Source: an archaeon (GTDB lineage Archaea; Iainarchaeota; Iainarchaeia; Iainarchaeales; 1-14-0-10-31-34). Taken from it: 51,245 nt of DNA. Positions 2,603 to 21,247 of the stretch are shown here, one piece after another. The notes beneath the pieces were generated by a model that worked only from the letters and a program-made list of their open reading frames with translations, had not been told where the DNA came from and did not search any database. Position 1 is the stretch's first letter. Each line of letters opens with the position of its first letter. The stretch is from positions 1 to 51,245 of the forward strand of contig JBDRIL010000060.1 in assembly GCA_043815885.1 (NCBI GenBank), in the 5' to 3' direction. The position numbers and the translations under genes are program-made.

Positions 2603-3370
2603 TTAGCTCACGGTTGAAGGATATTTTTCAAGATATGCTTCGGCAAGAATATTAAATAATGCATCATCATATACTGTGCCGGCATCATTTCCGTTCCAAC
2701 CAATGATTACATTACTGCCAGATACCCAGAGATAAGCCCTTGCTATTCCTGCTGGTTCCTCAACTGTTCTTTCAAAAATTTTATTTCCGTTAATCTCCCT
2801 AGAAACCATACTGCTAATACGACTTTTAAAATAACTATCTGCTTCATCAGAAGAGTTAAACATACAGAGATAAAACTCAGAGTGCTGGTCATTATCCTGA
2901 GGGCTCATATACCTTAAATCTATGCACTCGTTAGGGTATCCCTCGTCAATGCGCTCCCATAGCCCCCCGTAAGTAAATTCACAAAGCTCTGGCAAATCCC
3001 AAATCATTTTATCTCTAACAATCTGCTCCTTGGGGGGTTCGCACTGTTGGCAATCTGCATCAGTTGTACAACCATCCTCTCCTGCTCCTTCTACTTCCAC
3101 ACACTGTTGGTTTTGACATTCAAGGTGTGTTTCAACTGGTTGTACGCAGTCTATGCTATTACGGCATTCATCTACTCCACTTCCTTGTACCTGCACACAT
3201 TGCTGGTTTTGACATTCTAAATGTGTTGCTTGTTGTTGGCAGTCCTGTGGGCAGTTGTCATGATTTTCGCCTGCTTCGCAAGCGCCATTCCCGCAAACAG
3301 GTGGCTGTGTGCAACCGCTTATCAAAATCACTACAACTAGAAAAGCAACAATCAAATATTCTTTTTTCAT
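2603..3370 (-). CDS. Cys-rich lipoprotein
   Basis: Likely start MKKEYLIV...ISGC. 'CGNGACEAGENHDNCPQDC' motif and two tandem 'THLECQNQQCV.V.G.G.D.C....DC' modules. Confidence 0.85.
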   Translation of the reverse strand: MKKEYLIVAFLVVVILISGCTQPPVCGNGACEAGENHDNCPQDCQQQATHLECQNQQCVQVQGSGVDECRNSIDCVQPVETHLECQNQQCVEVEGAGEDGCTTDADCQQCEPPKEQIVRDKMIWDLPELCEFTYGGLWERIDEGYPNECIDLRYMSPQDNDQHSEFYLCMFNSSDEADSYFKSRISSMVSREINGNKIFERTVEEPAGIARAYLWVSGSNVIIGWNGNDAGTVYDDALFNILAEAYLEKYPSTVS

Positions 3371-4875: not shown

Positions 4876-5661
4876 TTACAAATGAAAGTAATACTTTCCA
4901 ATTATCTCATTTATTTCCTTCATTGAAAAACCTTTTTCCTGCAATAATTTCTTGAATGAATTAAAGTTGGCATCACTGTAAAAGCCCCTGCAGCCGTCAC
5001 ACGCTGCACCATTATTTGGACAGAGGGAATCACATCCGGCAGCAATTATCGGGCCCATGCAGAAACCTTCTTTTATCAATAAGCATTCATTTTCATTCTG
5101 CTTGCATTCAACACACACAGCAAAATCCTTTTCCCTTGGCTTTAATCCATGAACAAGGTGAATCATCAATGAATAGAATTCTTCTTTCTGTATTGGACAG
5201 CCTCTTACAATGTAATCAACTTTAACGTATTTCCCTATCGGCCAGGCTTCTGTCTCCTGCTTGGTTGTTTCAGTGATTTTTTTCTTTAATTCTTCCGAGA
5301 GATGGTTTCTGACTGAAGTAATCCCTCCAAATGCAGCACATGCCCCCAAAGCCACAAGCGATTTTGCATTCTTTCTTATTTCCTTTAATTTCTTTATGTT
5401 GTCCTTTGAAGTAATTGTTCCTTCCACTATCGCAATATCCATTGGCTTTACTTCATAGGATTCCCTTAGCATTTTAAAGTAAGAGAGATTCATTGCCTTA
5501 TTCAATTCAAGCAATCTTTCCTCTAATTCAATTACCTCAAACTGGCAGCCCTCACAGCAGGTGAAAGTGAAAACACCGACAGTTAATCTGTTGTTTTTAT
5601 TGTATACCGAAGGTATACAATGTTTTTTTGATAAAACTTTTCGGAAAAGTTTTTTATTCAT
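4876..5661 (-). CDS. hydD: Group 3b hydrogenase small/delta subunit, with a 19-aa N-terminal insertion
   Basis: 'TCCEGC', 'VEG', 'GACA..GG', 'GCP' and a C-terminal Cys cluster. Confidence 0.92.
   Translation of the reverse strand: MNKKLFRKVLSKKHCIPSVYNKNNRLTVGVFTFTCCEGCQFEVIELEERLLELNKAMNLSYFKMLRESYEVKPMDIAIVEGTITSKDNIKKLKEIRKNAKSLVALGACAAFGGITSVRNHLSEELKKKITETTKQETEAWPIGKYVKVDYIVRGCPIQKEEFYSLMIHLVHGLKPREKDFAVCVECKQNENECLLIKEGFCMGPIIAAGCDSLCPNNGAACDGCRGFYSDANFNSFKKLLQEKGFSMKEINEIIGKYYFHL
5602..5658 (-). repeat. 57-nt in-frame double-hairpin element in hydD
   Basis: AAAACTTTT-CCG-AAAAGTTTT and ATTGTATACC-TTC-GGTATACAAT, bounded by AATAAAAA direct repeats. Homologous to 12597-12707. Confidence 0.85.
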
Positions 5662-5663
5662 TT

Positions 5664-6491
5664 TTATTCCTCTTCTTGAAATAAATTTATTTTATTTAAA
5701 GGAAAGACTGGCCCGTCCAGACAAACATGCTTTTCTCCAATCATGCAGTGACCGCACTTTCCTGTACCGCAATACATTAATCTCTCAAGGGAAGCATAAA
5801 TCCTTTCTTCACTGAAACCCAGTTCCTTCAGCTTTAATGAAACAAAGTGAATCATTACAGAAGGGCCGCAGATTAATGCCACTGCATTCTCTGGATTAAT
5901 GGTTTCCGGTTTCAATAAATCCGTAACCAATCCGACATGGCACTTGTAATCCTCGTCCTTGCAGTCAACAGCGAGAAGAGTGTTAATGGAAGAATTCTTC
6001 TGTAATTTATTCATTAATTCCCTGTAAATGATTTCCTTTGGGGACTTGGAGCCATAGTAGAGAGTGATTTTTTTACAGAGGGAAGGATTTTCTAGAAGGT
6101 GAAGCAGAAGGGAATGAATCGGCGCTACACCTATTCCTCCTGCAATCAGGTAAACATTTTTTCCATTTAATTCCTCTAAAGGCCAGCTGTTTCCGTAAGG
6201 CCCTCTCACTCCTACTGTTGCGCCTTCCTTTAATTCAAATAATTCATCTGTTACCTTGCCTGCTTTCATTACACTTAAATCAAATGAATTCTTTTGCGAT
6301 GGAGGAGAGGAAATGCTTATTGGGGCTTCTCCAACGCCAAAAACCGAGAGTTCTACAAACTGGCCCGGAAGAAAGGAAAAATTTTTTTGTGCAGAAGAAT
6401 CCTTAAAGGAAAGAGTGAAGGTTTTCACTTTAGGGGATTCCTCTTTTATCTTCTTTATAATGCATGGTTCTGGCATTAAATTATTCCTCAT
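5664..6491 (-). CDS. hydG: Group 3b hydrogenase gamma subunit (FAD/NAD(P)-binding, 2Fe-2S)
   Basis: 'PGQF', 'GPYGN', 'GGIGVAP', 'CGP', 'CGTGKCGHC...CLDGPVF'. ATG 6491 overlaps the end of the upstream gene. Confidence 0.92.
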   Translation of the reverse strand: MRNNLMPEPCIIKKIKEESPKVKTFTLSFKDSSAQKNFSFLPGQFVELSVFGVGEAPISISSPPSQKNSFDLSVMKAGKVTDELFELKEGATVGVRGPYGNSWPLEELNGKNVYLIAGGIGVAPIHSLLLHLLENPSLCKKITLYYGSKSPKEIIYRELMNKLQKNSSINTLLAVDCKDEDYKCHVGLVTDLLKPETINPENAVALICGPSVMIHFVSLKLKELGFSEERIYASLERLMYCGTGKCGHCMIGEKHVCLDGPVFPLNKINLFQEEE

Positions 6492-8682
6492 TTTTTTCAC
6501 CGCTGATATTGTTTACTATTTTCACTATATCGATTGAGACAGGGCATACATCAATACACCTTCCGCATCCAACACAGAGGTGCTGGGGGAAATTCTTTTT
6601 ATGGTAGAGTAATTTGTGGAGGATGAAATGCCTTAATCTGGAAGTACGGGACTTCCTGAATATATGGTCGCCGGAAACACGGGTAAAACGCTTTAACTGG
6701 CAGGAATCCCATTCCCTCATTCTAACAGCATCATTGCTCAGCAAAGCAAAATCATCCTTTATTCTGTAGCAGTAGCATGTAGGGCAGACCATTGTGCAGG
6801 AACCGCAACTCAAACAAATGTCTGCATTTTTCTCGAATTCTTTATGGGAAAAATTTTTTTTAAGGATTTCCTCAAAATTCTTTGAATTAATTTTTCTCGG
6901 GGTTTTTGGGACAGTAAGAGGGGAGTGCTTTTCAGTGGAAGAAAAAAACTTCTTGTTTATGAGTTTTAAGCCTTTTTCAGAGCCAACCTCTGCAAGGTAA
7001 TTCTTTCCGTTTCTCCAAAAGAATAAATCGAATTCTTGCGGAAGGTGAGTTCCGAGAGAGGTACAGAAACAGTTTTCCCCTGCTTCTTCACAGCTCAAAC
7101 CAATTAAAATTGAGTTCTCTCTTTTTTCCCAGTAAAAGGAATCAATTGGTTCCTTTAGGAAAACTGAATCAAGGATTGAAATTGCATGGAGGTCACAGCT
7201 CCTGATTCCAAAAAATATTCTATTTCCTGCTCTCGGGAGAGGCTTAACGGAATAAGAAGAATTTTTTTCATTGAATTCAAATAAGGCTTCTCCTGAAGGA
7301 AGAAAATATTTTTTTGTTGAAAAGGTGGTGGGTTTTTCCATGTAAAGGTTTGCTTCAGGGAATGGCTTGAAGCGCTTTATTTTTCTGTGGTCAAGGGAAG
7401 GGACAATCAATTCAGTTTTTTTATTTAATTCTTTCAGGAAAGGAAGGAGTTTTTCTTTCTTTAATTCAAATAATCCAAAAAATTGCTTTTTATGATTTTT
7501 TAATTCTTCTATTGCAGAAAGGGTTTTGCCTGAAAGGAATTTAAGCGAGGCCTTTCCGCTGAGGGAAACATAAGAGAATCTGTTTTTCGGGATTTTAAAT
7601 GAAAGCAGTGCTGTCTCAGTGTCCCCGCCTCCCAAAAAAGAGAATGCGTTGGAGGAAGCAATTGATTTAAGAATGCTTTTAGTTCCAAGGGAGAATTCTT
7701 TTTCCTCAAAGACTCCAAAAGGGCCATTGAATACAATCATTCTTGCTTTGGCTATTTCATCTGAATATAATTTAATTGTTCTTTCGCCGATGTCCTTGCT
7801 GAAGTATTTTGAGGGAAGGTCATCAACACTTAATTCCTTTCTTTTTTTGTTTTCATCAAAGGCCAAATCTATTGGAAGGAGAATCCTGCTTCCGTACTTA
7901 TTCAGTAATTCCTTTGCTTTTGGAATGAATTCAGTGAAATTCTTTTTTCTAATAAAGGAATCTTTGGCTCCAAGCTTGTGTCCCTGCGCAGAGAGAAATA
8001 CTTCAGAGAGAGCGCCTCCCAAAAGCACTTTGTCTGCCTTTCCTTGCTTCAGAAAAAATTCAATTGTTTTAATTGAGTCTTTTGGCTTAATTCCTCCGAG
8101 TATAAGCAAGCGGGGTTTTTGTGTAAAGGAAAGCGCTTTAGAGAGGGAATTGAGCTCTTTTTCCATTACCCCTCCAATGCAGGAAGGAAGTAAAGGGAGG
8201 AATCCTACAACTGATGCATGGCTTCTGTGGCTGACAGAAAACGCGTCCAATACAAATAAGTCTGCTTCTTTCGCCAAGTCCTGAATCCATTTTTCCTTTG
8301 AGTGCTCCAAGGGAGAGAGTTCCTTTGTTTCGTTTTCAAGGAAACGCGTATTTTCTAGGAGAAGGATTTGGCCTTTCTTTAAGTTTTTTACTTTCTGGAT
8401 AAAGTTATTCCATTCAGAGAATAAAACCTTTTTTCCGGTTAATCTGGAGAGAATTTTTGAGTGTTCTTTTAAGGAAGTGAAATCTTTCTCGCCTTTTCTT
8501 CCCTGATGGGATAAAACAATCAATCGGGTTTTTTTCCTGCTTAATTCCTTTAAGGTTTTAGCATGCTCAATAATTCTGCTTGAAATTACTGGTCTAGAGT
8601 TCTGAATATTGCTGTTGAAGTCAGCCCTTACAATAAGTGTTCTGCCACTAATATTCAGTTTATTTACCGGAGTTAAGGACAT
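6481..8682 (-). CDS. pgk: Fusion of phosphoglycerate kinase (about aa 1-397) and hydrogenase beta subunit HydB (4Fe-4S)
   Basis: PGK motifs: RADFN, SHQGR, LLENTRF, HRSHAS, NGPFGVFE, GGGDT. HydB/AsrA motifs: GIRSCD, CFC, CLSCGSCTMVCPTCYC, WDSC, CVGCGRCIDVCP. One uninterrupted frame. Confidence 0.92.
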   Translation of the reverse strand: MSLTPVNKLNISGRTLIVRADFNSNIQNSRPVISSRIIEHAKTLKELSRKKTRLIVLSHQGRKGEKDFTSLKEHSKILSRLTGKKVLFSEWNNFIQKVKNLKKGQILLLENTRFLENETKELSPLEHSKEKWIQDLAKEADLFVLDAFSVSHRSHASVVGFLPLLPSCIGGVMEKELNSLSKALSFTQKPRLLILGGIKPKDSIKTIEFFLKQGKADKVLLGGALSEVFLSAQGHKLGAKDSFIRKKNFTEFIPKAKELLNKYGSRILLPIDLAFDENKKRKELSVDDLPSKYFSKDIGERTIKLYSDEIAKARMIVFNGPFGVFEEKEFSLGTKSILKSIASSNAFSFLGGGDTETALLSFKIPKNRFSYVSLSGKASLKFLSGKTLSAIEELKNHKKQFFGLFELKKEKLLPFLKELNKKTELIVPSLDHRKIKRFKPFPEANLYMEKPTTFSTKKYFLPSGEALFEFNEKNSSYSVKPLPRAGNRIFFGIRSCDLHAISILDSVFLKEPIDSFYWEKRENSILIGLSCEEAGENCFCTSLGTHLPQEFDLFFWRNGKNYLAEVGSEKGLKLINKKFFSSTEKHSPLTVPKTPRKINSKNFEEILKKNFSHKEFEKNADICLSCGSCTMVCPTCYCYRIKDDFALLSNDAVRMREWDSCQLKRFTRVSGDHIFRKSRTSRLRHFILHKLLYHKKNFPQHLCVGCGRCIDVCPVSIDIVKIVNNISGEKNEE

Positions 8683-8700
8683 CCAAAAAGTCTCCTTAAT

Positions 8701-9732
<1,032 letters not shown>

Positions 9733-10756: not shown

Positions 10757-12193
10757 ATGAATGGACAGGTTTCACTGGAATACTTGATGGTTGTAGGGTT
10801 CTTCTTGGTTGTTATTGGAGTAGTGTTCATTTACTCTTATTCAAGTTCCTCTGATACTTTTACTCTGGATAAAATAGATAATTCACTGAGTGCAATAAAG
10901 AACGGAGTGAATCAGGTTTATGCTTTGGGGCCGGGAAACCAGATTAAAGTAGACATTGATTTGCCTTACAATATATTGGACCACGAACTTACAGGAAGGT
11001 CAATTGCTTTTGTACTGCAAAGAGCAGGAGGAACAACAGACATTGTTGCTTATACTGATGCAGAGGTAGTGGGCGAACTTCCAATTACAGCTGGAAGGCA
11101 CACAGTGGTAATTAAAATGCTTGAATCAGGAGTAGTGAGAATAGGGGAAGGATTAATCATTACTCCAACTACACTTATAAGGACAAAAGTTCCAGGAAGC
11201 AGTGAAGATTCAAATATATTTACTTTAAGTAACCGTTCAACAGAAAATCTAACAAACTTAATTGGAGCAATAAGTGGAAGCATTGCTTCCTATGTGGCAT
11301 TTGATGACAGTTCAACTATAAAACTAATCACTAACGGCCTTACAGTAAACCAGGATTTGAACTTTGACGTGAATTTTGCTGCAATTCCTGCTGGAACAGC
11401 GGCAGGATTCTATGAAGGATTTGTGGATGTAAATTCAAATGAAGGATTTACTGATAGAGCGTTAATTCAGTTAAGGATTCCTGGAGTGATACAGGACATA
11501 AATATTGCAGTATTTAATGACAGCAATTATTTAGTGTATGATGAAGATTTTGCGCAGGGAGAAACCGTTTATTACCTGATTAAGGCAATAGGGCAGACAG
11601 GAGAAGAAATAGAAATAATCGACTTAAACATAACTATAAGTGATCCCCCTCCAGTAACAAATGATTCAAACTACTTCAATCAATCAGTTCCGATTGGAGG
11701 ATACAAAGGAGAGTTCTATATTGATTGCGGGGCAGAGGAAGGGGAATGGACTATTACTGCACAGGCAAATGACTTCAATTATGTGAGGGAAGACAAGAAC
11801 TTCAATGTAGCTGAAGGAGGCCTTGATGCAAACAGTTTCTGGTTTAGCTGTGTTGATCCAGACTGCGACAAGACAGGAACTACGTTTGATGGATGGAGGA
11901 TAGGGAATTCCTGTCTCGATAATATAACAATAACAGAGATAAAGACAAAAGCAACAGCGGGAGCAGATGTAAAGGGAGTTAATAGAATAACAATAAACAA
12001 TATAACCAAATACAATGGAAGTGAAACCACTGACTGGGTTGTGTTGAGTGGGGGTTTTACGGTAGCAGGGTTTACCAATTACTTGACTGGGAATTCATTT
12101 AAGTTTGGTTCAAGTATTGAAGGAACACAGGAATTCGATTTATACTTCAAGTTTGAGGATGCAAGCATTTATCACACTACCTTTACCAAATAA
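10757..12193 (+). CDS. Large pilin-like or adhesin protein with class III signal peptide
   Basis: 'MNG/QVSLEYL' followed by a hydrophobic helix; beta-rich remainder. Confidence 0.8.
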   Translation: MNGQVSLEYLMVVGFFLVVIGVVFIYSYSSSSDTFTLDKIDNSLSAIKNGVNQVYALGPGNQIKVDIDLPYNILDHELTGRSIAFVLQRAGGTTDIVAYTDAEVVGELPITAGRHTVVIKMLESGVVRIGEGLIITPTTLIRTKVPGSSEDSNIFTLSNRSTENLTNLIGAISGSIASYVAFDDSSTIKLITNGLTVNQDLNFDVNFAAIPAGTAAGFYEGFVDVNSNEGFTDRALIQLRIPGVIQDINIAVFNDSNYLVYDEDFAQGETVYYLIKAIGQTGEEIEIIDLNITISDPPPVTNDSNYFNQSVPIGGYKGEFYIDCGAEEGEWTITAQANDFNYVREDKNFNVAEGGLDANSFWFSCVDPDCDKTGTTFDGWRIGNSCLDNITITEIKTKATAGADVKGVNRITINNITKYNGSETTDWVVLSGGFTVAGFTNYLTGNSFKFGSSIEGTQEFDLYFKFEDASIYHTTFTK

Positions 12194-12205
12194 AGGTTGA
12201 TTTAA

Positions 12206-12598
12206 TTGAATAAAGGACAAGCTGCAACAGAAGCAATGTTTTCCATGGCAATCATATTATTGATTTTTCTGCTGTTTTTCAGCATAATAGTGAACCATGA
12301 CGAGAGAGTAAGAGACTATGAAGGCAACTGGGAAGAAGCAGCAAGATGCAAGAAGATTGCAGGAATAATGAGTGCACTGTATGTGGCCGGGAATGGAGCA
12401 AAATGGGATGGAACAATTGACAGAAACTTATTTGTTTACGGAGACAGCTTTATTGATTTAGAGGACTACAATGCAACTGGAGCAAAAGAAGGGGCTTTGT
12501 GTTACTTTGACGGAGTAACAACTGAAGATGTGAATGGGCACTGGGGGGATATTGAGATAATGAATATAGATGGAAACATAGTGGTGAGAAATGCGTAA
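12206..12598 (+). CDS. Minor pilin-like protein
   Basis: 'NKG/QAATE' class III signal followed by a hydrophobic helix; TTG start. Confidence 0.8.
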   Translation: MNKGQAATEAMFSMAIILLIFLLFFSIIVNHDERVRDYEGNWEEAARCKKIAGIMSALYVAGNGAKWDGTIDRNLFVYGDSFIDLEDYNATGAKEGALCYFDGVTTEDVNGHWGDIEIMNIDGNIVVRNA

Positions 12599-13202
12599 TA
12601 AAAAAACTTTTAGGAAACCCTATTTGAATCCAAGGATTCAAAGGGGCCCATTTGAGTTCTACTCAATTGGGAGTTTTATCAAAAAGCATTGCATACCTTC
12701 GGTATGCAATAAAAAAGGACAGATAATAGCTTACGATTTATTCTTTGCAGTAACAGTGTTTATCCTGCTTTCAGGGGCAATGCTTTTGGTTTGGTATTAT
12801 AATGCAGAGTACGCGGAAAAAGAGGAAACACAGAATGACTTGAAGGAGAGAGTGACAAGAATAACCGATGTAATGGTGAATACAAGAGGCAGTCCAGCGA
12901 GATGGGATGAGAACCTTTCACAGGACATAAATACAATTGGTTTGGTGGGAGAGAGAAGGGTGATTGAAAAGGAAAAGCTTCAAGCATTTGAGTCAATGGA
13001 TTACAGTAAGGCAGTAAGTGCAATGAAGATTTCAGGATACAATTTTTACTTTAAGCTGGAACAGGGAAACCAGATAATAGCGGAAAAATATAATACTGTT
13101 TCCAGTGATTACTTAACGGAATCAGATTATGTGGTTGGAACAAGAAGGGTTGTGGAATATGAAAGAAAAAGGGCGATTCTTTCCCTTAATTTGTACAAGT
13201 AA
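12591..13202 (+). CDS. Minor pilin-like protein with a 37-aa insertion in its leader
   Basis: 'NKKG/QIIAYDL' followed by a hydrophobic helix; 'GSPARW' and 'IGL' motifs. Confidence 0.8.
   Translation: MRNKKTFRKPYLNPRIQRGPFEFYSIGSFIKKHCIPSVCNKKGQIIAYDLFFAVTVFILLSGAMLLVWYYNAEYAEKEETQNDLKERVTRITDVMVNTRGSPARWDENLSQDINTIGLVGERRVIEKEKLQAFESMDYSKAVSAMKISGYNFYFKLEQGNQIIAEKYNTVSSDYLTESDYVVGTRRVVEYERKRAILSLNLYK
12597..12707 (+). repeat. 111-nt in-frame multi-hairpin element in the pilin-like gene
   Basis: AAAACTTTTAGGAAA[54-nt double hairpin]AGTTTTATCAAAAAGC-ATTGCATACC-TTC-GGTATGCAAT, bounded by AATAAAAA direct repeats. Confidence 0.85.
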
Positions 13203-13632
13203 GGGATGGGTCTTAAGTATTGATTCAATGGGCGCAGTCATTCTAGTGGTGGCTGTAATACTGTTAATGAGTTATCATCCATTCGAGAAAAGCACTGATG
13301 CACTGAATTCACTTGAAATGCAGAGAAACTTCAATGATGCGCTGGATTTAATGGATAGGGATGGAACGCTTCAACAAATGGATTCAAGTGAAATAGTGGA
13401 AGACCTGAATGCTGTTCTCCCAATACAGTATGACTGGAAGTTAAGGATAAGGGAATACAGGTACTTTCAACAGGAATTCGTTAAAACCGATGATTTGAGT
13501 GCAGGGAATACGTCGAAGGATACCGAAGAAGAGAGTGTGGTTAAGGGAAGCAGGTTGTTTCTTTCCTTTTCTGACGAAAAAATCAATAGATTCCATTACG
13601 CTGAGTACTGGGGATGGTTGAAGAATGAATAA
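13159..13632 (+). CDS. Minor pilin-like protein (start uncertain)
   Basis: 'SKG/WVLSID' followed by a hydrophobic helix. Confidence 0.7.
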   Translation: MKEKGRFFPLICTSKGWVLSIDSMGAVILVVAVILLMSYHPFEKSTDALNSLEMQRNFNDALDLMDRDGTLQQMDSSEIVEDLNAVLPIQYDWKLRIREYRYFQQEFVKTDDLSAGNTSKDTEEESVVKGSRLFLSFSDEKINRFHYAEYWGWLKNE

Positions 13633-14491
13633 CAAGGGAGTCTTTATTACGCTGACAATTTTTCTCCTGGCTGCTGGGGTTCTTGCCTTAAGCCAGAGCA
13701 TCAGGCATAATTTCAATGAATTAGAGGGAAACAATAAATACGTTGTAATGACTGATAGAGTGGGCTATAAATACGAAAATATTCAGGACAATATTTTTGA
13801 TATAATAGAGAACATTAGCGGGATAGACTTCAATATAGGAGAGAAAAGCATTACCTTCACAGAAGAGCTTCCAAATGCAAGAAGCCTTGATGCAATGGAG
13901 ATATCGATTGGTGCTTACAAAAAATTTGTTGAAGAACACAAAGACGGATTGGATATAAACATGAACATAACTGACTTTGATTTAAGTACCTTCACTATAA
14001 TGCCTTACGACATTAATTACTCTCATGCTGATGCTCCTGGAAGAGGCAATAGACACAATAACACAATTTATTATGAGCCTTCCTCTCTTGACTTCAATGC
14101 ATATGTAGTGGAAGTAATACTGCAAAACCAAACATATGATGAAGTAGAGGAAGACATTGATTATGCTGACATGGCAGGAGAGCAAGGAGTCAACTTATTG
14201 CTCATTGTAAGGAACAGTGTAAAGATAGAGGAATTCAGTAAATTCTATGAAGGAATAGATGCAAACGCAGAGAGCGAGATAACGATTAGTACTACTGGAA
14301 ACGCGGAAAAGGATGTACATATAACTATTACTCCTTTTGGAAAAATGACTGTACTGAATAACAATTCTGTTGCAGTGGATATTGTTACGGGAATTGATTT
14401 TGGTGATGACGCAACAGAGGAACCATACCTTGAGTTATTGAAGGGATTAGTGGTAGTGAGGAGCCCCAGGCTTAAGATAGAAAAAAGATAA
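13625..14491 (+). CDS. Pilin-like protein
   Basis: 'MNNKG/VFITL' followed by a hydrophobic helix. Confidence 0.75.
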   Translation: MNNKGVFITLTIFLLAAGVLALSQSIRHNFNELEGNNKYVVMTDRVGYKYENIQDNIFDIIENISGIDFNIGEKSITFTEELPNARSLDAMEISIGAYKKFVEEHKDGLDINMNITDFDLSTFTIMPYDINYSHADAPGRGNRHNNTIYYEPSSLDFNAYVVEVILQNQTYDEVEEDIDYADMAGEQGVNLLLIVRNSVKIEEFSKFYEGIDANAESEITISTTGNAEKDVHITITPFGKMTVLNNNSVAVDIVTGIDFGDDATEEPYLELLKGLVVVRSPRLKIEKR

Positions 14492-14540
14492 TAAATAGAA
14501 TAAGCATTAAAAATAAGGAACCATAATATTATTTAGCTCG

Positions 14541-16232
14541 GTGAAAGAAATGGAAAACAGCGAAAAACAACAGAAAAAGAAGTTGTTTGGGTTAATCAAG
14601 GAATTAAATGAAATGACCGCCAAAAAAGAAGAAAAAAAGAAGGGAATAATGGATTTTATTTCAAGGATTTTTCCATTTCCGGAAAAAAGAAAGAAGCAAA
14701 AGGAAGAGAAAAGGGAAATTGCAATTGAAAAGGAATTTGAAGAAAGGGGATTAAAAGAAATAGAGAATGAAATCCTGAAAAAGGAAAAAGAATTCAAAGA
14801 ACTAGCAAAGAAACACGAAGTAAGGGAAAAAGAATTATTCAAGAAAAAAATGGCGGAACTGGAAAGAATAACCGAAAGCATAAGGCTCTCAAGAATGATG
14901 AATGAAGTAGAGGAAAAAAAGGAAACAGAAAGAAAGATAGAGGAAGTAGTGAGAGAGATAAAGAAAAAAGTTAAGCGAGGAAAGAATAAAGAAAAGGAAA
15001 AATCCTTGAAAGTGAAGAGAAAGAAGAGGATTGTAAAGGTAAGAAAGAAGCGAAAAGCTAGGAGAAGGAAAAAAATTGAAGAAGAAGATGAGGATGAAAC
15101 CCCTGAAAGAAGAGAGATTGGAAAGAGAGTAGTGATTAAAACCCGGGGAGGGGTAACAATAATGAAGGGGCGTCCTTCAAGAGCTGGTGCAGTGGGTGCA
15201 GCTCCTGCTGAAGCTCCAGCAAAGACACAGCAAGAGAGAGACGTTGACTTAGAAATAGAAAAAATGAAGGAAAGAATAAAGAACCTGAGAATGGCTTACT
15301 TCAAGAGAGAAGTGACAGAACAAGAGTACAGGCAGAAGATGTATGATTACAAGGAAGAACTGCATCTGCTTGAAGTGGAAAATAAGAGAATTGGGGAAAG
15401 GAAAAAAGAGGAAGAAAAGAGAAAAGCAGCAGAGCCTGCAAAAGAAGAAGTGAGGGAAAGGGTTCCTGAAAGAGAAGGAGTGGAAACCCCAAGAAGGGAA
15501 ATGAGTGAAGATGATTCAAGGAGATTAAAGGCATTAGATACATTCAGAAAGGAATTCACTGCAGGGCCAAGCTCTGCGCCATCAACAACTGTTTCTCCTG
15601 AACCAAAGGAATTTGATTTAGGGAAGTTTGAGAGAAAAGCCCCTGAAGATGAAAAGGAAGGAACTGAAATTGAAAAAAAGATAAGCCAGATAATTGAAAA
15701 AAAAGGAGTGGTTGGAAAGGTTGGGGAAACAAGATTAAAGAAAATGGAGAAGAAAGCAGAAAAATTAATGAGCAAATATCATATCCCGGAAGAAGAAATG
15801 GAGGAAGCCATAAGCAAGCTAGGAACGAAAAAACTGCTTGCAGACTTTGATAAACTGATTAATTTAATGGAACTAGAACACAAGACACATGAATTGGTTG
15901 AAGTTGTTAAGCCAGAGAAAGAAAAGTCATACATTGGCTCGGCAAGGCCTGCTGTAAAAGAAGAGGTAAAGGGGGTAATAAGAGACATAAGAAAGTACAG
16001 GATAATAACTGCCTTCGATAAAATTCTTTCTTTAGTGAACCAGAAAGGGATTGCAAGGGAAAAAGAACTGGTGAGGGAGCTTGGAATGAAGAAAGAAAGA
16101 GTCATGGAATGCTGTGAGATACTGAAAGAAAATGGATTGTTGAAGATAGAGTATCCCCCGATAGGGGACACTAAAATAATATCAAAAAATTATGTTCCAA
16201 AAAAAGAAAAGAAAAAGGAGAAGAAAAAATGA
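14541..16232 (+). CDS. Highly charged coiled-coil protein with a C-terminal winged-helix-like domain
   Basis: K/E/R-rich; C-terminal 'TAFDKIL...ELG...IL.ENGL.KIEYP'. Its stop overlaps the ATPase start. Confidence 0.7.
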   Translation: MKEMENSEKQQKKKLFGLIKELNEMTAKKEEKKKGIMDFISRIFPFPEKRKKQKEEKREIAIEKEFEERGLKEIENEILKKEKEFKELAKKHEVREKELFKKKMAELERITESIRLSRMMNEVEEKKETERKIEEVVREIKKKVKRGKNKEKEKSLKVKRKKRIVKVRKKRKARRRKKIEEEDEDETPERREIGKRVVIKTRGGVTIMKGRPSRAGAVGAAPAEAPAKTQQERDVDLEIEKMKERIKNLRMAYFKREVTEQEYRQKMYDYKEELHLLEVENKRIGERKKEEEKRKAAEPAKEEVRERVPEREGVETPRREMSEDDSRRLKALDTFRKEFTAGPSSAPSTTVSPEPKEFDLGKFERKAPEDEKEGTEIEKKISQIIEKKGVVGKVGETRLKKMEKKAEKLMSKYHIPEEEMEEAISKLGTKKLLADFDKLINLMELEHKTHELVEVVKPEKEKSYIGSARPAVKEEVKGVIRDIRKYRIITAFDKILSLVNQKGIAREKELVRELGMKKERVMECCEILKENGLLKIEYPPIGDTKIISKNYVPKKEKKKEKKK

Positions 16233-19200
16233 AGGAAAAAACACTTGCATCATACTTCATTGAAATAGACAAAGCAAAACTAGAAGTCAACATAATGCAG
16301 AAGGAAAAGGCATTTGTGAGATTTTATTTCCTGAATCTGCCTGAACTGGGAACAGGAACAAAAGCATTACTGAAGAACCTGAAAACGAGTTTGATTACAG
16401 ATGCAACAATCAAGGCAGAAAAAATGATGGACCCAAAATTCATCAAGGAATTAAAGGAAAAATTCAGGGAAAGAGCTGAAACAATTCTTTCAAAAGAACT
16501 GCCGGACATGGACGAAAAAATAAAGGAAATCCTTATCGTGATTTTGCTCCAGGAAATGCTTGGATTGGGAAAGATAGAGTTTTTGCTGGAAGACCCTAAC
16601 CTGGAAGAAATCGTGGTTAATACCTCAAGCGAACCAGTGTGGATATATCACAGGACATTTGGATGGCTGAAAACCAATATCCTGATTAAACCAGAGGAAG
16701 AAATCCAGAACTATGCAAGCATTATTGCAAGAAGGATTGGAAAACAGATAAGCGTTCTTAACCCATTGCTTGATGCGCATCTAATTACTGGAGACAGAGC
16801 AAATGCAACACTGTTCCCTATTTCCAGTAAAGGCAATACACTGACTATCAGAAGGTTTAGGAGAGATCCATGGACATTGACTGATTTTATTGAAAACAAG
16901 ACAGTTAATGCAGAAATAATGGCATTGCTCTGGATGGCAATAGAGTATGAGCTGAATATAATGTTCAGCGGAGGAACTGGTTCAGGAAAAACAAGTTTCC
17001 TTAATGTATGCATGCCATTCATTCAGCCAAATAATCGTATTTTATCTATTGAGGACACAAGAGAGATCCAGTTGCCTGAATACCTTCACTGGGTGCCTCT
17101 AACTACAAGGGAACCAAATCCAGAGGGAAAAGGGGGGGTTTGTCTTTATCCTGGAACATGGTTTGTTACAGGGGATGGAGAAATAAATGAGATAGCAGAA
17201 TATGTTGAAAGCAGATTAAAACAAAGGCCAACTGAAAAAATAGAATCAAATGTACTGGTAGCAGAAGGAAAACAGGATTGTGTAATAGCTGGAGACCCAA
17301 AAAAGTTCAGTTATCAAGCTGAAAAGATTAAAATTGTGTCAAGGGTCACTGAAAGAAAATATGTTTGTGAAATCGAATGTGAAAATGGTGAAACCATTAG
17401 TTTAACTGAAAATACTAAATTGCCAGTGGTTGGAATGAATGGAAAAATAGAGTTACTTAAGCCACAAGAAATAAAACAAGGGGATTATTACTTGCCAGCC
17501 TTTAGTGAAATTAATTTAAAAGGAAGTATCCAAGAAATAGATGCAATAAAGATTTTTGGAGAAGGAGAGTTTTATGCAGTTGATAAGGCAGATTTGTTTT
17601 CAGATTTAATTAAAGAACAAAGCGAAAATGGGTTGACGCTCAAGGAAATTGCAAATAAGTGTGGAATAAAAAGGCAAGCTTTTAACTGGTACAAAAAAAC
17701 AGGGATAGTAAGACTGCCTGTATTAAAAAAATTGGTTGAAGAAAGCAAAATAATGAATCTAGAACAATTAGAGAAGGAAATTTCGGTGATTAAGGCACGA
17801 GGACAAGGAGCAAAACACGTTAGAATCCCGAAACAAATTGATGAAGACCTCGTGTATCTAGCAGGATTTATTTTAGCTGAAAAAAGTTTAAGTAAAAATG
17901 GAATCCACATAGTGCAAAAGGATGAATTGCCAGAACTTGAACACTTAGTCAAAAAGATTTTTAATGTGGAAATCATACACAAAAAATTCGCCTACAATTA
18001 CTACAGGATTCTATCGCAAATCATTATGAAGATAATGAAGGAAGTGTTTGGCGCTACTAAATCAAAACTAATAAGAGTCCCAAAATGCATTATGCGAAGT
18101 ACCAATGAAGTAATCGCTGCATTTCTGGCAGGATATATTGATGGAGACGGAACTGTTGGAAAGAGAAGAGTTTCTTTAGCTACGGGCAATAAAGAAGCTG
18201 CAATAGAATTCAAATATCTTTTAACACGACTGGGGATATGGAGCAGGATCCAAAAAGCCAAGAGAGCATGGATTATTAATGTGTGTACAAGAGAAGACGT
18301 AGTTAAAGCATGCAAAAAAATAGAGTTTAGATTGGAAAAAAACAGAAAAAAAGCTGAAGAAATAAAAAATATCAAATACAGTCATAATACCAAAAGAAAC
18401 CGTGTCCCTGCCCTGCTTCTGCACAATTATATGAAGAGTTTAATGCAATCATTGAGTGTTGAAGAAAAAAGAAAGCACTTGTATCATGCAAGCTATAATA
18501 AAACCAGTGTGCCAAAGGGATACTTACAAAAGATATTATTGCAGGCAAAGTTGAGTGAAGAGGAAATTCAGAATATTGAGTTGTTTTTAAGAGAGGACTT
18601 GGAGTTTGTGAAAATAACTGATGTTAAAATTACTCCGAATGAAAAAAATATCCCCAGCTATGATGTAACCCCAGAAAATTCAACTTATTTTGTTGCAGGG
18701 ATAAATAATCTGACATTGGTAATGGATACAATGCTTGATTTGCTGGTAAATTCCTTGAGAATGCGTCCAGACAGAATAATTGTTGGAGAGATAAGAAGGG
18801 AGAGAGAGGCAGAGGTAATGTTTGAAGCAATGCATACAGGGCACAGTGTTTACACTACAGTTCACGCAAATACTGCAGAGGAAACAATAAGAAGGCTGGT
18901 AAATCCTCCAATCAATATCCCTGTTTCAATGCTTGATTCAGTGCATTTAAATGTAGTGATGTTCAGGAACAGGCGAATGGGAACAAGAAGAGTGCTTCAG
19001 GTAGCTGAACTCATCCCAGAAAAGAGGGGCGGAGGAGAAGAATTGGTTAAAGTGAATGTATTGTATAGATGGAAGGCATCAGTTGATGAAATAGGAAGGC
19101 ATTCAGAAAGCATCAGGTTGTTTGATGAATTAAGCCTTCACACTGGATTCACTATCCCTGAAATAAACGAGGAATTAAAAAGTAAGCAGGAAGTGGTTGA

Positions 19201-19345
19201 ATGGCTTATGAGGCACAAGATAAAAGGGATTGAAAAAGTGGGAAAGATAATGGCTCAATATTATATGGATAAAGACTCTGTAATGGAATTAGTGAATAAA
19301 AACAAGAAACCGGAATTTGGTGAAGAAATTGGAAAAACATATTAA
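16229..19345 (+). CDS. Type IV pilus/secretion ATPase (CpaF/VirB11/ArlI family) containing an intein
   Basis: Walker A 'GGTGSGKT', Asp box 'IEDTRE', 'LRMRPDRIIVGEIR', His box 'HTGH...TVHA'. Confidence 0.93.
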   Translation: MKEKTLASYFIEIDKAKLEVNIMQKEKAFVRFYFLNLPELGTGTKALLKNLKTSLITDATIKAEKMMDPKFIKELKEKFRERAETILSKELPDMDEKIKEILIVILLQEMLGLGKIEFLLEDPNLEEIVVNTSSEPVWIYHRTFGWLKTNILIKPEEEIQNYASIIARRIGKQISVLNPLLDAHLITGDRANATLFPISSKGNTLTIRRFRRDPWTLTDFIENKTVNAEIMALLWMAIEYELNIMFSGGTGSGKTSFLNVCMPFIQPNNRILSIEDTREIQLPEYLHWVPLTTREPNPEGKGGVCLYPGTWFVTGDGEINEIAEYVESRLKQRPTEKIESNVLVAEGKQDCVIAGDPKKFSYQAEKIKIVSRVTERKYVCEIECENGETISLTENTKLPVVGMNGKIELLKPQEIKQGDYYLPAFSEINLKGSIQEIDAIKIFGEGEFYAVDKADLFSDLIKEQSENGLTLKEIANKCGIKRQAFNWYKKTGIVRLPVLKKLVEESKIMNLEQLEKEISVIKARGQGAKHVRIPKQIDEDLVYLAGFILAEKSLSKNGIHIVQKDELPELEHLVKKIFNVEIIHKKFAYNYYRILSQIIMKIMKEVFGATKSKLIRVPKCIMRSTNEVIAAFLAGYIDGDGTVGKRRVSLATGNKEAAIEFKYLLTRLGIWSRIQKAKRAWIINVCTREDVVKACKKIEFRLEKNRKKAEEIKNIKYSHNTKRNRVPALLLHNYMKSLMQSLSVEEKRKHLYHASYNKTSVPKGYLQKILLQAKLSEEEIQNIELFLREDLEFVKITDVKITPNEKNIPSYDVTPENSTYFVAGINNLTLVMDTMLDLLVNSLRMRPDRIIVGEIRREREAEVMFEAMHTGHSVYTTVHANTAEETIRRLVNPPINIPVSMLDSVHLNVVMFRNRRMGTRRVLQVAELIPEKRGGGEELVKVNVLYRWKASVDEIGRHSESIRLFDELSLHTGFTIPEINEELKSKQEVVEWLMRHKIKGIEKVGKIMAQYYMDKDSVMELVNKNKKPEFGEEIGKTY
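17141..18727 (+). mobile_element. Intein (529 aa) with HTH and LAGLIDADG domains, ending in Asp
   Basis: Splits the conserved 'EGKGGV|TMLDLL'. Starts CLYPGT; 'YLAGFILAE' and 'FLAGYIDGDG' motifs; block F 'SYDVT...YFVAG'; ends VMD before Thr+1. Confidence 0.9.
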
Positions 19346-20240
19346 AAAAGAAAAGAGTGAAAAGATTCCTTTTTCCTTTATTCCTCCATCCCTGCTTAAA
19401 AGAATTTCAAAGAGATTTCATGGAATAGGAGCAATAGTGGCAAAGGCATTCCCCTCCCTTACAAGTGATTTGGAGCATGCAGAAATAAATTATTCGGTTG
19501 AAGACTATGGCGCAATAGCAGTAATCCTTGCATTCTTTTACTTTGTTTTATGCAGTATTGTATTCAGTTTAGTTGCTTCAAGGTTTTTTCCTGAAAGAGC
19601 CATCTTAGTTGGGATAACTGCTGGAGGCATTATAGCATTCCTTATACTGATACAGGTAACCATGTATCCAAGGATAAAGGTAAAAAAGAAGGTAAGAGAG
19701 ATAGAGAGGAATTTAGTGTTTGCCTTAAGAACAATGCTTGTACAGATGTCTTCAGGAGTCACGCTATTTGATTCAATGAATATGATTGCAGAAGGAAATT
19801 ATGGCGCCCTTGCAGATGAATTCAAGGAAGCAATAGATGAAATAAATACTGGAACACAGGAAGAAGAAGCACTGCAAAAAATGGCTGACAGGAATCCGTC
19901 ACTTTTTTTCAGGAGAAGCCTGTGGCAGATGGTTAATGGAATGAAGGCAGGGGCAGATGTAAGTGAATTAATGAATGAATTGGTTTCAACAATGATGAGA
20001 GAGGAAACCATCCAGATAAGGCGATATGGGTCGGATTTGAGGATGCTTTCATTAATGTACATGATGATTGGAGTAATTATCCCCGCGTTAGGTTTAACCC
20101 TTCTTATAATGCTTTCATCATTTCCGGTAATAAAATTAGGAGAAATAATGTTTTGGGGGCTGCTCTTTGGAGTGATTATAGGCCAATTCATGTACATGGG
20201 AATCATTAAATCAAAGAGACCAAACCTAATGGAGAGTTGA
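19317..20240 (+). CDS. Type II secretion F-domain membrane platform protein (TadB/C-like); start uncertain
   Basis: 'SG..LFD', 'YG.L..EF', 'GAD' and transmembrane helices, downstream of the ATPase. Confidence 0.85.
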   Translation: MVKKLEKHIKKEKSEKIPFSFIPPSLLKRISKRFHGIGAIVAKAFPSLTSDLEHAEINYSVEDYGAIAVILAFFYFVLCSIVFSLVASRFFPERAILVGITAGGIIAFLILIQVTMYPRIKVKKKVREIERNLVFALRTMLVQMSSGVTLFDSMNMIAEGNYGALADEFKEAIDEINTGTQEEEALQKMADRNPSLFFRRSLWQMVNGMKAGADVSELMNELVSTMMREETIQIRRYGSDLRMLSLMYMMIGVIIPALGLTLLIMLSSFPVIKLGEIMFWGLLFGVIIGQFMYMGIIKSKRPNLMES

Positions 20241-21247
20241 AGAAAAAAATGTATCAAAGAATTGCATCACTTCTTCCAAAAGGAGTAATAGATAAATTCC
20301 GGGAAGAATTAAGTTATCTGGAAATACCGATAGAGGAAAAACGATTTGTTGGATTTGTCTTCATTTATTCACTTGCTTTGAGTTTTGGGATTGCACTGAA
20401 TCTTTTTCTTTTCTTTGGAATTCCAATAATCATATCATTCGTGATATTTTCTCTCTTATTCTTTGGAGGAGTGTATATCTGGCTGAGCATGATGAGTGAA
20501 AGCAAGGGAAAGTTTGTTGAAAAGATTTTGCCTGACGCCCTACAGATGATTGCCTCAAACATCAGGTCAGGACTGACAACAGAAAGGGCATTACTTGCTT
20601 CAGCCAGACCTGAATTCGGAATACTGGAAAAGGAATTAAAAAGAGCCAGTAAAAAAATAATGGCCGGAGAGCGAATAGAAATAGCCTTAATGGACATGCC
20701 TGAAAGAATCCGTTCAAAGACATTAGAGAGAACTATATGGCTTATCTCCAAAGGAATTCGTTCAGGAGGAAAGATAGCTGATTTACTGATGAAACTGTCC
20801 GATGACTTGAGGGAACAGAATGCATTGCAGCAGGAAACAAAGGCAAATATCTCTATTTATGTAATGCTTATCCTTTTTTCTTCAATGGCTGGAGCGCCAG
20901 TGCTTTTCGGGATTTCTACTTTTATTGTTCAGGCACTGTACAAGCACATGAGTGATGTTCCTTCGTTTGACCCATCACTATCTGAACAAAGTTCAATGAA
21001 TATCCCTATTGCTGGCTCACTGCTTATGGGAGAGAGGAATCCGATTGAACCAGAGTTTGCGATAATGTTTGCAATGGTCATTATGTTCTTTGGTTCAATT
21101 TTTGCTGCCCTGACAATAGGAGTAATAAACGCAGGAAAGGAATTAGAGGGAATAAGATACATTCTACCTATACTGCTTGGGAGCTTTGCAATATTCTTTG
21201 CTGTAAGATTCATGCTTTTATTTATGTTTGGATCACTAATTCAGTAA
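20237..21247 (+). CDS. Type II secretion F-domain membrane platform protein (TadC-like)
   Basis: 'LPDALQMIASNIRSG.T.ERAL...ARPEFG.L', 'SGG'. Confidence 0.88.
   Translation: MKKKMYQRIASLLPKGVIDKFREELSYLEIPIEEKRFVGFVFIYSLALSFGIALNLFLFFGIPIIISFVIFSLLFFGGVYIWLSMMSESKGKFVEKILPDALQMIASNIRSGLTTERALLASARPEFGILEKELKRASKKIMAGERIEIALMDMPERIRSKTLERTIWLISKGIRSGGKIADLLMKLSDDLREQNALQQETKANISIYVMLILFSSMAGAPVLFGISTFIVQALYKHMSDVPSFDPSLSEQSSMNIPIAGSLLMGERNPIEPEFAIMFAMVIMFFGSIFAALTIGVINAGKELEGIRYILPILLGSFAIFFAVRFMLLFMFGSLIQ

Follow-up and report, generated by a model that had tools for sequence, protein, structure and literature searches.

The window analysed here, a stretch of 51,245 nucleotides from the Iainarchaeales assembly GCA_043815885.1 (contig JBDRIL010000060.1), contains a gene for a pilin-like protein of 203 residues (12591-13202, plus strand, from the list of open reading frames, ORFs) whose leader carries a hairpin-bearing DNA insert. 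The ORF opens with the codons ATG CGT AAT AAA AAA, then 111 nt follow, and past these the frame reads AAT AAA AAA GGA CAG ATA ATA GCT TAC GAT. Two copies of the 9-mer AATAAAAAA, read directly from the sequence, flank the insert at 12597-12605 and 12708-12716 on the plus strand, and the AAT of the second copy doubles as the foot of the terminal hairpin, hereafter hairpin 2. The two copies are spaced by 111 nt, i.e., 37 codons in frame, just as claimed in a preliminary description of this DNA. Excision of the insert would give an N-terminus beginning MRNKKGQIIAYDL. If one direct-repeat copy is included in the count, the element is 111 nt long and occupies 12606-12716 on the plus strand, as judged from the alignment of 13 long copies and from an nhmmer match of the long-form model at 12601-12715 (E = 6.9e-35).

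Four hairpins lie between the AATAAAAAA copies: an outer stem, two inner hairpins and the terminal hairpin 2. In the centroid fold the outer stem, hairpin 1 (12603-12677, plus strand), is formed by AAAACT at 12603-12608 and AGTTTT at 12672-12677, which enclose the inner module; this helix is 97% paired in the 13 long copies. The inner module of 54 nt (12618-12671, plus strand) consists of two hairpins, 12618-12646 and 12647-12671, seen both in the fold and in the alignment of long copies. Hairpin 2, ATTGCATACC-ttc-GGTATGCAAT, is located at 12688-12710 on the plus strand by pattern match and by the alignment of 28 copies, and contains a compensated C-G pair. The predicted RNA fold of the whole insert has an energy of -42.3 kcal/mol (z = -5.1), and none of 200 shuffled sequences folds as well. 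The double hairpin had been described earlier with a loop of two nucleotides in TTTGAATCC/GGATTCAAA; the two hairpins are there, but a 2-nt loop cannot close, and the computed fold has a 4-nt loop instead. The pilin-leader copy is also the sole long copy without one A in the second inner hairpin, which is present in 12 of the 13. An Rfam scan of 12400-12900 at E <= 10 returned chance-level matches only.

A second copy, of a shorter form, occupies the first codons of hydD (5594-5650, minus strand, 57 nt), as found by nhmmer and by an empty site in a metagenome contig. The gene (4876-5661, minus strand) encodes a hydD-like hydrogenase small subunit (PF01058, E = 7.1e-26), to which the element adds an N-terminal extension of 19 residues. 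Here hairpin 2 is ATTGTATACC-ttc-GGTATACAAT (5599-5621, minus strand), and the RNA fold of the copy has z = -3.9. The hairpin 2 pattern matches the window exactly twice, in the pilin-like gene and in hydD, versus no match in 100 shuffles.

The empty site is found in a contig from metagenome run X4 (419 nt, depth 6.8), whose alignment covers 5378-5593 and resumes at 5651-5831, with exactly the 57 nt in between skipped. The 8 ambiguous letters at the joint correspond to one AATAAAAA copy. As 25 of 397 aligned bases differ (roughly 6% divergence), the X4 contig represents a related strain. The protein alignments agree on the length of the extension. Among six loci with HydD homologues, five have an in-frame Met 6-8 residues ahead of the conserved motif T/SLxxFSLTCCEGCQFE, and the sixth is less clear; the HydD of the window has 26 residues before its TLxxFSLTCCEGCQFE motif, and 7 without the insert.

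Queried with the mature part of the pilin-like protein, a large protein collection yielded one relative beyond the window's own protein. This orthologue, P0002, has 166 residues, is 68% identical, and starts MPKEKGQVLTYDLFF, with the short leader MPKEKGQ. In the pairwise alignment the gaps are confined to the leader and total 37 residues. The preliminary description had foreseen that orthologues with the same long leader and no hairpins would speak against an insertion; P0002 lacks the long leader altogether and is shorter by precisely these 37 residues. Among the metagenome matches listed, no contig bridges 12597-12716 without the insert. Both copies in the window are genuine insertions.

The two copies belong to a larger family. 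The genome (1.16 Mb in 62 contigs, 36.8% G+C, 91.7% complete) contains 32 loci at an nhmmer threshold of E <= 1e-4, divided into 15 short, 13 long and 4 partial or rearranged copies, and a covariance model of the short form, R1, has 31 matches. The short form, of about 57 nt, has two hairpins in the order A-run, AAAACTTTT-nnn-AAAAGTTTT, ATC, A-run, ATTGTATRCC-TTC-GGYATACAAT, A-run. The long form, of about 111-115 nt and four hairpins, is the short form with about 55 nt added at one fixed point in hairpin 1. Since the 54-nt module is found at the same place in all 13 long copies, it is the marker of a subfamily and not a private event of the pilin copy.

The inner module is never seen alone, either in this genome (nhmmer) or in 150 other genomes of the order; with up to 3 mismatches allowed, its 36-nt core matches 12 times here and not once in the other 150. 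The earlier proposal of a modular, nesting element thus holds in part: the inner module is a subfamily trait, not an independent 54-nt unit, as it occurs only inside the 13 long copies. The hairpin 2 pattern has 19 sites in this genome and none in 60 others from the order. Like the inner module, hairpin 2 is private to this genome. At one locus (L022; G000, contig C13, 8250-8405), half a short copy, consisting of hairpin 1 and the linker, is followed directly by a long copy, with the linker ATCAAAAAAACAGT on both sides. This arrangement is either an element inserted in an element or the result of unequal exchange.

The terminal hairpin covaries. In 28 aligned copies, 94.3% of the cells of hairpin 2 are paired, a value that none of 500 shuffles reaches. 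Double changes affect 4 of the 10 pairs (13 cells) and are likewise matched by none of 500 shuffles, with the caveat that kinship among the sequences can alone outscore shuffles in the absence of selection. The T-A to C-G exchange previously noted between the hydD and pilin copies is real (UA in 22 copies, CG in 2, unpaired in 4), and the most variable pair is AU in 12 copies, GC in 8, GU in 4, CG in 1 and other in 3. Compensatory changes at the 4 pairs preserve the fold of the terminal hairpin, as had been suggested. Intermediates of both kinds, G-T as well as C-A or A-C, are present, so neither strand is clearly favoured. Two copies have an inverted loop (GAA in place of TTC), as expected from a flip of the palindrome. 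The two hairpins of the inner module, on the other hand, are near-invariant, without a compensatory change in the 13 long copies. The peptides read from hairpin 2 in the genic copies are CIPSVY, CMPKAY, CMPQAH and CIPSVC. They shift together with the compensatory changes, from which we conclude that the nucleic-acid structure is kept and the peptide is not.

An A-run precedes each copy, and each copy also terminates in an A-run. The 5' flank is always an A-tract, mostly with a T before it. There are no terminal inverted repeats: in the 28 aligned copies the ends, CTTTT... at 5' and ...GTATACAAT at 3', are not reverse complements, and each end folds into a hairpin of its own. When the bases before the A-run are compared between the 5' flank and the 3' end, the mean matching suffix is 1.68 within a copy versus 1.19 between copies. 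None of 10000 permutations reaches the observed value, in a test that includes one wrongly picked 5' flank (contig C33). These comparisons support a duplicated or copied target of the form T/G-A5-8, and in both window copies the repeat is 8-9 nt long (AATAAAAA).

The placement of the copies in the genome is restricted. According to a rough gene call (1173 genes, 90% coding), 6 of the 32 loci lie in genes, and all six are in sense orientation, in frame and within the first codons, with an identical frame of hairpin 2. A seventh locus overlaps just the last 13 nt of a gene, gene bodies contain no copy, and the remaining copies, about 25, are found in short intergenic spacers in both orientations. 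Two of the three sense frames of the element are open and the third stops at a TAA. Only 27 of the 294 sense-strand AATAAAAA sites in genes fall in the first 30 nt. As all six genic copies are nevertheless at gene starts, the distribution must reflect survival or a targeting rule not yet seen.

Besides hydD (PF01058) and the window's pilin-like gene (recognised by leader pattern, orthologue and operon context), the hosts are a PKD-domain protein on contig C1, where the insert is followed closely by the class III signal motif PF04021, starting at residue 29; a second C36 gene with KG-W and a hydrophobic start; a lipoprotein-like gene on C12 with LLIGC; and a gene on C58 with an N-terminal hydrophobic segment, the last three judged by eye. 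By inspection, five of the six genic copies are in apparent signal-peptide n-regions. This fits the earlier idea that the insert is tolerated because the leader would be removed, and retention in cleavable leaders is a plausible placement rule.

It could be asked if the extra 37 residues are themselves a selected N-terminal peptide module, for instance a long leader with a function of its own. The open frame, the Lys-rich peptide, which is similar to signal-peptide n-regions, and the constant frame of hairpin 2 in the six genic copies would all be consistent with this. However, the same DNA is present about 25 times outside genes in both orientations, the peptide drifts with the compensatory base changes, P0002 does without the extra residues, and the element is also attached to a cytoplasmic hydrogenase subunit. 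We give this explanation hardly any credence.

The host gene of the long copy is accepted as pilin-like from its leader pattern, its operon neighbours and the two genes for A24 prepilin peptidases (PF01478) in the genome, one near 15037 on contig C13 and one near 12042 on contig C31. Its leader contains KKGQ followed by IIAYDLFFAVTVFILL, and the orthologue P0002 has MPKEKGQ followed by VLTYDLFF. The gene lies in a type IV pilus-like operon (10757-21247, plus strand, from ORFs and domain matches), with class III-like N-termini in several genes, a T2SSE ATPase (16229-19345) and two T2SSF genes (19317-20240 and 20237-21247). The neighbouring N-termini MNGQVSLEYL, MNKGQAATEAM and MNNKGVFITL are class III-like by eye. 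A Pfam search of the pilin-like gene gave no match, including to the class III signal-peptide family PF04021; the gene on C1 with the same kind of insert does match this family (22.9 and 24.9 bits). The lack of a Pfam match weakens the first description of a typical short class III signal peptide after excision, and the name pilin is based on the context and the leader pattern. We infer that a prepilin peptidase removes the leader from the pilin-like protein. Within the same operon, the T2SSE ATPase (16229-19345, plus strand, 1038 aa) contains an intein (Intein_splicing and LAGLIDADG_3) that splits the ATPase in two parts.

Unlike hairpin 2 and the inner module, hairpin 1 is widespread. Within the order, 46 of 151 genomes and 28 of 66 genera contain the pattern AACTTTT-n3-4-AAAAGTT-nn-ATCAAAA, with up to 34 copies per genome, while the reversed control has no match in any of the genomes of the order scanned. 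The module is patchy within genera, with counts from 0 to 26 in one genus. A wide scan of 185,579 species genomes found at least 117 stretches. The titles of the 80 loci listed are archaeal in 78 cases and bacterial in 2. Archaeal groups among the matches listed include Woese-, Pace-, Nano-, Micr-, Aenigm- and Altiarchaeota and Iainarchaeum, as well as Methanosarcinales, the anaerobic methanotrophic archaea (ANME) of group ANME-1, Methanomicrobiales, Methanobrevibacter, Methanocaldococcus and Halobacteriota. At least 120 stretches contain an exact 27-mer of the module. The cultured Methanobrevibacter curvatus and M. filiformis (DSM 11501) are among the carriers, with many copies and with tandem arrays of a 39-nt period. 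In M. curvatus DSM 11111 such arrays are located at several places of the genome (L245 6535-6692, L214, L258, L255).

The stem of hairpin 1 has 9 bp, and its outermost pair is CG in 140, AT in 92, GC in 78 and TA in 72 of 464 strand-instances; this position is paired in 82% versus 26% after shuffling. A C/G-swapped hairpin of equal composition and stability is about 44 times rarer, with 3 sites versus 131 in nine genomes of the family, which argues for shared descent or specific recognition over a generic need for a hairpin.

The hairpin 1 module is also associated with tRNA genes. It is found in ARAGORN-predicted tRNA introns at 6 of the 80 loci listed and at two loci of relatives, L043 and L079, the tRNA of L043 being confirmed by Rfam (52 bits), and also directly behind tRNA 3' ends. 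It further occurs in mosaics with GC hairpins bearing TTCG loops. In two relatives (G001 L043 1463-1577, minus strand; G008 L079 203-344, minus strand) the intron of the same tRNA-Asn(GTT) differs in its number of modules, one versus two, so modules are gained or lost in place. At L072 (1-130; G003, contig C31), a module-bearing stretch has 17 nt from a tRNA 3' end, TGGACCCGGAGGGAATC, on either side. This duplication looks like the footprint of an integration at a tRNA gene.

The presence in tRNA introns, together with insert lengths divisible by three, raises the question of whether the inserts in genes are intron-like, cut from the mRNA by the archaeal splicing endonuclease at a bulge-helix-bulge and never translated. 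An exhaustive search of the six genic copies for a helix, a 3-nt bulge, a 4-bp helix and a 3-nt bulge found only scattered AT-rich pairings, none at the borders and none recurrent. No bulge-helix-bulge brackets the borders of the element in any of the six, so this candidate was rejected; the two flanks are both A-rich and do not pair with each other. The frame is moreover open in all six copies, which would be needless for a sequence that is spliced out. An intron of this type is very improbable.

In viral contigs of IMG/VR, 56 stretches contain the hairpin 1 module. L332 (3869-4039) has five tandem modules in one spacer and resembles nucleocytoplasmic large DNA viruses (NCLDV), with genes for a major capsid protein and a poly(A) polymerase; it is the sole contig verified as being of this type. 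L334 has a single module in each of three spacers (2004-2030, 3297-3323 and 4921-4947). A restriction to archaea would therefore be too strong a statement. A BLAST search with the Methanobrevibacter array unit against phage and plasmid collections gave no match, although the low-complexity filter may hide AT-rich matches. A literature search, with subscription journals and supplements outside its reach, gave no published description of the motif, nor of in-frame palindromic elements from DPANN archaea. The hairpin 1 motif is unmentioned in the accessible portions of PMC12306157 and PMC13107129, and one 15-mer of it appears in the literature only as an unrelated bacterial primer.

Such a distribution could also be explained if the hairpins were functional host elements, terminator-like in both directions or protein-binding, that were duplicated around the genome, with the genic copies as by-products. 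The frequency in the order against a reversed control of zero, the predominance of archaeal titles from many phyla (78 of the 80 loci listed) and the wide occurrence of the exact 27-mer are in line with this. So is the position of the copies: at least 17 intergenic ones in this genome follow a stop codon at a distance of up to about 100 nt (mostly up to about 50 nt), others are directly behind tRNA 3' ends, and the viral contig L334 has one per spacer in three spacers. Each arm of the hairpin also provides a T4 tract, on both strands. However, a host function is at odds with the patchiness inside one genus and with the empty hydD site in a close strain. A terminator would be harmful at coding starts and in tRNA introns, where copies sit, and a general demand for hairpins would not disfavour the C/G-swapped form 44-fold. 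On balance we consider this explanation unlikely, though it deserves more weight than a splicing or a peptide-module origin.

From the identity across phyla, the covarying outer pair and the 44-fold preference, it can be speculated that a common machinery mobilises or recognises the module, or that its horizontal spread has been exceptionally wide. The element in the pilin leader may then have been assembled locally around an oriented module of ancient origin, namely a 9-bp hairpin, X-AAACTTTT-loop-AAAAGTTT-X', with ATCAAAA behind it. The module is largely archaeal in cellular genomes, near-identical in DPANN archaea, methanogens, ANME, other lineages and some viral contigs, and settled in tRNA introns, intergenic arrays and gene starts. 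It would in effect be an archaeal counterpart of the repetitive extragenic palindromic (REP) elements of bacteria, with either a machinery common to its hosts or an exceptionally wide horizontal spread implied. We put this forward as a tentative possibility, held with less than even confidence.

For the insert in the pilin leader itself, we suggest that it is probably a member of a family of non-autonomous, hairpin-bearing mobile repeats that are selfish and kept only where they do no harm. Copies are located at A-tracts of the form (AA)T-A5-8, with the tract directly repeated on both sides, and would persist only between genes, in short spacers, or within the first few codons. The insertion itself, the number of copies, their direct repeats, the covariation and the restricted placement are established. 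At gene starts, translation of the element would yield a hydrophilic peptide rich in Lys. The class III leader of the pilin-like protein would grow from about 6 to about 43 residues, and an A24 prepilin peptidase would presumably cut off the long leader, so that the mature protein would remain unchanged. Movement may proceed via a single-stranded hairpin intermediate with an enzyme supplied in trans, for which a HUH/Y1-like enzyme is the leading guess.

Several points weigh against a selfish mobile repeat of this kind. Y1 transposases (PF01797; IS200/IS605 or RAYT type, RAYT being the REP-associated tyrosine transposases) have no match in this genome at its completeness of 91.7%, and the control genomes matched. 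They are present in 43 of 151 genomes of the order and absent from several motif-rich ones (e.g., with 34, 27 and 26 copies), and no element-like hairpin was seen near six sampled Y1 loci of relatives. Hairpin 1 (AAAACTTTT/AAAAGTTTT) and hairpin 2 (ATTGTATACC/GGTATACAAT) have no sequence relation; the left and right end hairpins of IS608-type elements are alike in sequence. TnpB elements fare no better as a source. The genome has three TnpB matches, of which two belong to copies of a 1319-bp insertion sequence (IS); the remaining match is fragmentary and lies on contig C2, about 1 kb away from a copy of the repeat. The ends of the IS are unrelated to the element, and the C2 fragment shares no end with it. 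No transposase, which the preliminary description proposed to look for, could be linked to the element. As the foot AAT of hairpin 2 lies within the repeated 8-mer, a target duplication is indistinguishable from insertion beside a chosen site similar to the 3' end of the element itself. Translation through the insert and cleavage of the leader are deduced from the sequence, and for four of the five genes with an apparent signal peptide that assignment was made by eye alone. Finally, hairpin 1 is near-identical from one phylum to another, which is hard to square with a neutral selfish element and hints at a role in the host.

The TnpB-only IS is an observation in its own right: self-BLAST of the genome reveals it as the one IS-like repeat, with two copies of 1319 bp (G000, C38 17321-18638 and C11 11239-12556) that are 90% identical and have an open frame of 420 aa each.

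Compared to known systems, the closest parallel to the residence in genes is found in the palindromic elements of Rickettsia (RPEs), which the available text of PMC10969869 describes as short palindromic repeats located in frame in unrelated protein-coding genes and read through as peptide. Likened by description, with no RPE sequence compared, both are short palindromic repeats distributed across a small genome and in frame in genes; here six genic copies are open and two have insert-free relatives. They differ in length (about 150 nt in RPEs versus 57 or 111 nt here) and in host, Rickettsia versus an archaeon. In the present family, moreover, the genic copies are all in the first codons, mostly of cleavable leaders, an A-tract is directly repeated, and the peptide is not conserved.

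REP elements have a GTAG or CGTC tetranucleotide tag, according to the portion of PMC3733652 available to us. With these and with bacterial interspersed mosaic elements (BIMEs) the present element shares short imperfect hairpins without terminal inverted repeats, an organisation in mosaics and tandem arrays, and a tag beside the stem, here ATCAAAA 3' of hairpin 1. However, its consensus has neither GTAG nor CGTC, the genome lacks the Y1 transposase that would correspond to RAYT, there is no clear co-occurrence with Y1 across the order, and copies are found in genes and tRNA introns.

The palindrome-associated transposable elements (PATEs) derived from IS200/IS605, and TnpB-only IS, similarly have sub-terminal hairpins that are not inverted repeats, and the 5' flank resembles the 3' end of the element. 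Insertion in the IS200/IS605 mechanism takes place next to a short specific sequence. In contrast to PATEs, the two hairpins of the element are unlike each other, direct repeats of 6-9 nt flank it, and the ends of the 1319-bp TnpB IS differ. [quoted passage not shown] The element thus matches no classical family tested in its defining features; the in-frame residence is RPE-like and the modular hairpins are REP/BIME-like.

Selfish palindromic DNA inside coding sequence has so far been best known from Rickettsia, and is here found in an archaeon with insert-free relatives for two copies. The suggested rule of tolerance in a 90%-coding genome is that copies persist where the protein segment is removed in any case, i.e., in the n-regions of signal peptides, class III pilin leaders included. 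For annotation, such inserts would explain over-long leaders and odd N-terminal extensions among the gene calls of DPANN genomes. The 27-mer of hairpin 1 is a searchable handle on a machinery that moves or reads short hairpins across Archaea, and the cultured Methanobrevibacter carriers make the question testable.

Elsewhere in the window, a 733-aa ORF (6481-8682, minus strand) contains a complete phosphoglycerate kinase (PF00162, E = 4e-101) and a C-terminal 4Fe-4S dicluster domain, and lies directly upstream of hydrogenase gamma-, delta- and alpha-like genes. Over the GAPDH gene, at 8531-9678, the summed depth of contigs is very high in each of the four metagenome runs; this comes from the conserved genes of many other organisms and not from this genome.

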